Shown: positions 8,175 to 8,447 of the stretch, in pieces
How positions within the stretch are numbered: position 1 is the stretch's first letter
Layout of the letters: every line of letters begins with the position of its first letter
DNA from: a virus
Taxonomy: Duplodnaviria > Heunggongvirae > Uroviricota > Caudoviricetes
IMG/VR virus record: IMGVR_UViG_2713896798_000009
Strand: one strand, 5' to 3'
DNA length: 14,996 nt
Translations under genes and position numbers: made by a program
Notes under the pieces: model-generated
Database searches by the model: none
What the model saw: only the letters and a program-made list of their open reading frames with translations
What the model was told of the DNA's origin: nothing

Positions 8175-8447
8175 TTAGCTGTCCTGGTAATTGCGCCATA
8201 TTTCATCACCAGCACCATCTATACCCATTTCGGCATAAGTGCGATTGACTGCCTTTCTCAGGTCTCCGAAATTATCAGGCGGCTCCGGTGGCCTCTGTGC
8301 CTTCCTGGAACATTCCAGCCGTCGCATCGTGATGTGATGCCGTTCCTTGTCTGTCTCCACCAGCATCATGACTTCACCCCATCGCGCCGCCGCCCTCCGG
8401 TAAAATCCTTTCGCTTCGAGTTCTTCCGCTATGCGGTCATGTACCAT
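8175..8447 (-). CDS. PerC-family-like transcriptional regulator (90 aa)
   Basis: Start set at ATG 8447 (MVHDRIAEELEAKGFYRRAAARWGEVM...) with GAGGGGG RBS; the N-terminal motif resembles the conserved PerC/Pch region (recalled, not searched). Confidence 0.45.
   Translation of the reverse strand: MVHDRIAEELEAKGFYRRAAARWGEVMMLVETDKERHHITMRRLECSRKAQRPPEPPDNFGDLRKAVNRTYAEMGIDGAGDEIWRNYQDS

Follow-up and report, generated by a model that had tools for sequence, protein, structure and literature searches.

A 90-amino-acid open reading frame lying between the replication genes and the capsid genes of a phage satellite raises the question of what a satellite-borne PerC-like protein is for: control of the satellite's own late genes, or cross-regulation of loci in the bacterial host. 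An initial annotation, made from the sequence, had proposed both and had raised activation of ler as a possible output, LEE1/ler activation being the activity that named the PerC family. We addressed these alternatives in the window, that is, the whole stretch of 14,996 nucleotides of viral DNA that was analysed, by asking what carries the gene, what its product is, how it is likely to be transcribed and which of several roles best fits its distribution and its relatives.

The carrier is indeed a satellite, as had been proposed: int, alpA, a primase gene and head and packaging genes are present (the window order being int, alpA, primase and ssb, then capsid, protease, portal, connectors, HNH, TerS and TerL), and no tail or lysis genes were found in the ~15-kb island between the two halves of tqsA. 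Icd-like and DUF4222 genes and a head closure gene are also present. By the published description of capsid-forming PICIs (cf-PICIs: 10–18 kb; int, alpA and a replication module; their own head and packaging set; no tail or lysis genes; bioRxiv 10.1101/2022.09.08.507074 and 10.1101/2025.02.11.637232), this is a capsid-forming PICI of the EcCIEDL933/Sp7/OI-51 type. The window matches a segment of E. coli FORC_028 at 100% identity, in which the identical gene is RefSeq WP_016241305.1, 'PerC family transcriptional regulator', and the island splits tqsA (ydgG), with the N-terminal tqsA fragment at window positions 1–165 (plus strand) and the remainder beyond position 14996. Compared with Sakai Sp7/EcCIEDL933, the prototype capsid-forming PICI, the island is a mosaic: DNA identity is 98–99% for the capsid gene and orf74 (98.3% for the capsid module), 93.4% for pchE and 89.8% for ssb, and the primase/origin module is unrelated to that of Sakai. 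Closely related islands occur in the LEE-positive STEC serotypes O157:H7, O103:H2 and O111:H11, and tqsA is the reported site of a related island in commensal E. coli ED1a (PMC3378721). A DUF4222 protein encoded at 11527–11826 (minus strand), immediately upstream of the primase gene, occupies the position of RgdR (ECs1581), an OI-51 activator of type III secretion that is also a repressor of motility (PMC3378721); the window protein is 29% identical to RgdR and has PGA in place of the RGD motif at residues 20–22.

The open reading frame proved real and lies on the minus strand, which had previously been left unstated; it runs from an ATG (8447–8445) to a TAA (8177–8175) and encodes the 90-residue product MVHDRIAEELEAKGFYRRAAARWGEVMMLVETDKERHHITMRRLECSRKAQRPPEPPDNFGDLRKAVNRTYAEMGIDGAGDEIWRNYQDS, with a GAGGGGG ribosome-binding site 5 nt from the ATG (Table 1). 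A longer frame of 130 residues from a GTG at 8567 was rejected because position 1 of the PerC model aligns exactly at the ATG; the ribosome-binding site likewise fits the ATG, and RefSeq has the 90-residue form. The frame is intact and its dN/dS against the Sakai orthologue (0.21 to 0.23) points to purifying selection. All ten residues that are invariant in 100 relatives (D4, L10, G14, R17, R18, R22, W23, D33, R36 and C46) are kept, and the C-terminal 40 residues are conserved inside the PchE subgroup. RefSeq also lists a 42-residue 'hypothetical protein' (WP_001368639.1) at 8090–8218 on the same strand, which is probably not a real gene, as it shares sequence with the 3′ end of perC, in another frame, and runs across the terminator hairpin.

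Table 1. Features of the perC region and the adjoining capsid operon (window positions)
Feature	Position	Strand	Remarks
perC/pchE-like CDS, 90 aa	8175..8447	-	Stop codon included; Pfam PF06069, RefSeq, identity to Sakai PchE
Ribosome-binding site GAGGGGG	8453..8459	-	Read from sequence; overlaps ssb stop codon 8460-8458
ssb, upstream partner of perC	8458..8868	-	PF00436, TIGR00621
orf101	8878-9183	-	Small ORF upstream of ssb, same direction
orf81	9180-9425	-	Homologue of Sakai ECs_1586
Replication origin	9477..9710	.	AT-rich; at least 12 GGTGAACAG iterons, direct and inverted
Intrinsic-terminator-like hairpin T1	8144..8168	-	AGCCGGAGAAATCCGGCT followed by T7; starts 7 nt past the perC stop
orf74, phrog_1957	7825..8049	-	Separate small unit between perC and the capsid operon
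Terminator-like hairpin T2	7797..7814 (or 7793-7814)	-	After orf74; 27-nt, 93%-identical copy of T1 (repeat family D3)
Capsid-packaging operon leader	7533..7796	-	Contains 26-nt element, inverted repeat, hairpin with U8
26-nt element TTGTTCGTGGTCGTTCCACGTTGTTC	7748-7773	-	Best-conserved part of the leader; 10-bp phased YGTTC repeats
Hairpin with U8 abutting capsid ATG	about 7569-7533	-	AGGA Shine-Dalgarno inside the 3′ arm
Terminator-like hairpin after capsid gene	6365-6335	-	

Profile searches placed the protein in the PerC family (Pfam PF06069; E = 1.3 × 10−43; 147.6 bits against a gathering cut-off of 22.6), with residues 1–89 aligning to model positions 1–89 of 90, that is, over the full length and about 125 bits above the Pfam threshold, the opposite of the lack of significant similarity that the initial annotation had named as telling against the assignment. 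The PerC-like N-terminal motif recognized earlier (AEELEAKGFYRRAAARWGEV, residues 7–26) falls inside this match; the PerC core LExKGxYRRAxxRW, followed by D..R and a Cys, is present, and 90 residues fit the family size of ~90–105. The protein also matched phrog_994 (E = 1.6 × 10−47), and its N-terminal 52 residues matched several further PHROGs described as 'transcriptional activator'. The family assignment is correct and was already known, from the RefSeq annotation and from work on a 91%-identical orthologue, PchE; published accounts of PerC homologues in Gram-negative PICIs date from 2018 (PMC6092414) and 2025 (PMC11773190).

Within the family, the window protein is 91% identical to Sakai PchE (ECs_1588) and 93% identical to the protein of O157 strain 2571, compared with 48% for EcCIMP1_025, 42% for PchA, 40% for EPEC PerC and 35% for PchD, so that, judged by sequence, the gene is a PchE allele, PchE being the perC homologue that is termed 'group 3' in enterohaemorrhagic E. 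coli. Identity to ECs_1588, separation from PchA/B/C, PchD and PerC, and location in the element all place it in the PchE group. In Sakai, ECs_1588 is annotated pchE and the Sp7 element is OI-51, also CP-933C or EcCIEDL933 (PMC3378721). The Sakai protein likewise has 90 residues, with 8 amino-acid differences from the window allele, and the order ssb–pchE–orf74–capsid is common to both islands: ssb stands upstream, the terminator, orf74 and the capsid module stand downstream, and the 660 nt downstream of perC are ~99% identical in DNA. The two islands differ in their sites (the O157 islands, Sp7 included, sit between roxA and phoQ, the window island in tqsA), in their primase/origin modules and iterons, and in the additional 101-residue ORF that the window island has upstream of ssb.

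The better-known members of the family are more distant. PerC (BfpW, of the EPEC EAF plasmid) and PchA/B/C (of EHEC lambdoid prophages) belong to PF06069, are ~90–104 residues long and share with the window protein the core LExKGxYRRAxxRW and the invariant D33, R36 and C46, but are only 40–42% identical to it; PerC is encoded in the plasmid perABC operon and PchA/B/C at prophage ends, whereas the window perC is in a satellite. These proteins activate LEE1, PchA through H-NS displacement (PMC4764244), which the PchE group reportedly does not. The satellite protein EcCIMP1_025 is encoded by a PerC-family gene in an E. coli PICI without capsid genes; unlike the window gene, it is not adjacent to ssb, and its C-terminal half differs from that of the window protein. 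It silences LEE1 in C. rodentium, and its authors propose that it behaves as an ANR-type negative regulator (PMC11773190).

The predicted structure suggests how such a protein might act. An AlphaFold model (pLDDT 86) contains only helices (residues 5–13, 16–27, 33–50 and 60–73), and the fold is predicted to be all-helical and TPR-like, without a classical DNA-binding domain; no DNA- or RNA-binding fold was seen in the model, a Foldseek search with it returned nothing at E ≤ 0.001 (best E = 2.3), and no sequence relative of the 90-residue protein was found in the PDB. The NCBIfam model ANR_neg_reg (NF033650) matched residues 7–52 to positions 9–54 of its 54 positions with 20.2 bits (E = 3.8 × 10−4), below its 32-bit cut-off, and 67 of 100 PerC-family members, the window protein among them, matched the same model at E ≤ 0.01 (best E = 2.5 × 10−9). 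By sequence, then, the window protein is related to the ANR family, yet is not classed as ANR, and the breadth of the matches among PerC members identifies the N-terminal half as an ANR-like module. ANR proteins (Aar, Rnr and Cnr) are anti-activators of AraC/XylS regulators and also bind H-NS. For Aar, which has no apparent DNA-binding capability, the partners are AggR and H-NS (PMC5570504), and the window protein, as modelled, resembles the family in being a three-helix protein of this kind (PMC5570504). It differs from ANR proteins in having ~30 more residues and a further, conserved helix at its C-terminal end, and in that its gene has no adjacent AraC-type gene. Given the absence of a classical DNA-binding domain and the ANR matches in two-thirds of the relatives, we favour a mechanism that would operate through protein contacts.

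The surroundings of perC suggest how it is transcribed. In nearly all satellites examined, perC is adjacent to ssb, and the gap between the two in the window is 10 nt, which suggests that they are co-transcribed and possibly translationally coupled. T1 is unchanged (100% identity) in Sakai and O157 strain 2571 and, from its sequence, would serve as a terminator. At the other end, the origin (GC 0.35) lies between the primase gene and the orf81–ssb–perC unit; different iterons occur at the same place in Sakai Sp7 (AACCCGCA) and in O157 strain 2571 (GTGGGGAG), which carry different initiators. In O157, the pchE transcript has been mapped by 5′ RACE and RNA-seq to a start 10 nt upstream of ECs1586, on a polycistronic RNA spanning ECs1586–ECs1587(ssb)–pchE (PMC7369912); its expression is basal and drops when the SOS response is induced (PMC7369912, PMC6265319). 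By homology, an equivalent start in the window would lie just above position 9425; because the origin-proximal region cannot be aligned with that of Sakai, the O157 start is transferable by gene homology only, and a scan for sigma-70 consensus promoters on the minus strand from 7300 to 9800 found none. No link between the ssb–perC pair and the ssb of plasmid leading regions was found, as two plasmid PerC homologues have unrelated contexts (one beside an HTH regulator, the other in a PchD-like PAPS-reductase context).

Together, these observations lead us to favour, at somewhat better than even confidence, a reading in which the satellite carries a PchE-type protein-contact regulator that retunes host surface and motility functions with little or no LEE1 activation. 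The orf81–orf101–ssb–perC unit would end the replication module, with perC last and an intrinsic terminator closing the unit, and would be transcribed at a low constitutive level from an origin-proximal promoter while the island is integrated, by homology with O157. Its small all-helical product, in which the three N-terminal helices (residues 5–50) would form the ANR/PerC module, would most likely act through contacts with the H-NS/StpA/Hha nucleoid complex or AraC-type activators, rather than dock classically on DNA, with curli/csgD and some adhesins lowered and flhDC and flagella raised, and with little or no LEE1 activation of the PerC/PchABC kind. In this account, the gene, family, orthology, synteny, terminator and fold class come from the present analysis, what is said of the regulon and of the transcript start is taken from published work on the orthologue, and the protein-contact mechanism is our inference.

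Those papers document cross-regulation of the host by PchE on over-expression, which supports that part of the initial annotation. When over-expressed, PchE is a strong repressor of csgD and csgA, of biofilm formation and of HEp-2 adhesion; levels of eae, lpfA1 and stpA fall too, whereas flhDC, fliC and motility rise (PMC6265319, PMC7369912); the phenotypes come mainly from plasmid over-expression, deletion of pchE having a slight curli phenotype (PMC6265319). The contact partner is less readily carried over from the relatives: PchA activates LEE1 only by relieving silencing by H-NS/StpA/Hha/YdgT (PMC4764244), and H-NS involvement has been established for group 1 Pch proteins (42% identical) and ANR proteins, not for PchE. 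With stpA and adhesins down and flhDC up, the effects of PchE look more like reinforced than relieved H-NS control, so that partner or sign may differ.

A second reading, to which we give tentative, minority credence, is that the ssb–perC cassette is a general factor in the satellite life cycle and that effects on host virulence and motility are side-effects. It could act by countering H-NS silencing of the AT-rich origin and int–alpA spacer, or by neutralizing a helper-phage or host regulator after induction or entry; at the molecular level, a PerC-like adaptor of TPR/ANR type would neutralize an H-NS complex, or a helper or host regulator, for satellite expression or replication, a proposal that we hold to be possible but doubtful. 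Distribution argues for such a role, as perC directly follows ssb in satellites from nine or more genera, whether or not the satellite has capsid genes (capsid-less examples come from Escherichia, Enterobacter, Kluyvera, Atlantibacter, Shimwellia, Buttiauxella and others). So does the composition of the origin and of the int–alpA spacer (GC 0.37), both of which would be typical H-NS targets, and so do shorter homologues, comprising the N-terminal 52–68 residues only, which occur in lytic and temperate phages. The PerC-like protein of EcCIMP1, moreover, silences LEE1 and does not activate it (PMC11773190), which indicates that virulence activation is not the common denominator of satellite PerCs. 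However, the published essential regulator in EcCICFT073 and EcCIEDL933 is AlpA (PMC6092414; bioRxiv 10.1101/2022.09.08.507074), pchE is on in the uninduced state and falls with SOS induction (PMC6265319), unlike a gene of the induction phase, and some capsid-forming satellites are without both ssb and perC. No report of a satellite perC mutant was found in the literature searched.

Control of the satellite's own late genes, the other half of the original proposal, would have the PerC-like protein act as a dedicated regulator that activates or antiterminates the capsid-packaging operon, and we consider it improbable. Its appeal lies in the arrangement of the locus: perC closes the early/replication unit and directly precedes the capsid module, as a late regulator might, and T1, T2 and the hairpin with U8 all stand between it and the capsid gene. 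The succession of hairpins (behind perC, behind orf74, at the capsid ATG and behind the capsid gene) resembles lambda PR′–tR′ and suggests a need for antitermination in the packaging operon. The leader (264–292 nt) is ~99% identical across islands with unrelated replication modules, is predicted to fold with −99.8 kcal/mol (z = −4.78 versus shuffled sequence) and includes a 17-nt inverted repeat (7624–7640 and 7655–7671); Rfam gave no family match anywhere in the window, leader included. Its 26-nt element, with the 10-bp phased repeats, sits ~240 nt ahead of the capsid ATG in every one of the ~45 E. coli cf-PICI contigs compared that extend far enough upstream.

The same element, however, points away from PerC. 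It recurs upstream of alpA at 13687–13731 (plus strand), with three further phased copies, and near the island att arm at 252–264 (minus strand); in Sakai Sp7 (L005), copies lie at 4805–4827, 6189–6201, 12458–12470 and 20043–20055, both att arms included. Its 13-nt core, at ≤2 mismatches, occurs 5 times versus 0.5 expected from shuffled sequence. A comparison of the element with island type in the diverged L006/L008 lineage turned up only an 11-mer match, at chance level, and a single 22-nt segment that lies near the right end and has 2 mismatches. The copies upstream of alpA and near the att arms argue for Int or AlpA, rather than PerC, as the reader, and make the element a candidate operator that would join recombination, alpA autoregulation and head-gene expression. 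In these islands the master activator is AlpA (PMC6092414), and AlpA-family proteins are proven processive antiterminators in Pseudomonas (PMC7969949, PMC9371919); the lack of a DNA- or RNA-binding fold in the predicted model also counts against a PerC-like late regulator.

Distribution does not support late-gene control either, and here the initial proposal lost ground. Many perC-bearing satellites have no capsid or packaging genes, and perC is absent from diverged capsid-forming islands in which primase, orf74-like and capsid genes follow one another in that order (L071–L076, L078 and L079), which makes an obligatory late-gene role unlikely. In diverged cf-PICIs without ssb and perC, homologues of orf74 (~41% identity) precede the capsid gene (at 4957–5202 in L075 and 5494–5769 in L078); orf74 is linked to the capsid module more tightly than perC is, and is itself missing from many E. 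coli cf-PICIs with 99%-identical capsid genes.

More improbable still is that the window protein is a classical virulence activator of LEE1/ler, and with it of type III secretion, where the host is LEE-positive. It belongs to the same Pfam family and keeps the N-terminal motif, the related islands in O157:H7, O103:H2 and O111:H11 do place such genes in LEE-positive strains, and some satellite PerC homologues are stated to activate LEE (PMC6092414). The initial suggestion of ler activation retains one direct observation, a slightly more than twofold rise in ler with pchE over-expression in strain PA20 (PMC7369912). Against it stand the identities (40–42% to PerC/PchA versus 91% to PchE) and reports on the closest relatives: according to the passages of PMC6265319 that cite Iyoda & Watanabe 2004 and Porter 2005, ler and espA expression needs group 1 Pch and not PchD or PchE, which have little effect on LEE, and, as summarized in the part of PMC11773190 that cites Porter 2005, the PerC-like proteins of the EcCIEDL933 and EcCICFT073 satellites left LEE1-lacZ unaffected. 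The lowered eae expression and HEp-2 adhesion (PMC7369912) point the same way, and the expectation of ler activation is weak for this subgroup. Finally, that perC is a decaying passenger gene without function is barely credible, for although perC differs more from island to island than the neighbouring capsid module does (93.4% versus 98.3% DNA identity), the extra divergence reaches ssb (89.8%), fitting a mosaic boundary with the replication module, and the reading is already contradicted by the dN/dS, the intact frame, the conserved ribosome-binding site and terminator, the ten invariant residues and the measured phenotypes of the orthologue.

For the PchE-type regulator that we favour, the expected read-outs are curli/csgD, flagella and adhesion, and not ler activation, since the window gene is a PchE-type allele. 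Satellites of many genera keep perC joined to ssb; if the cassette does serve the satellite life cycle, what has been seen in pathogens on curli, flagella and LEE would be a by-product of that role.
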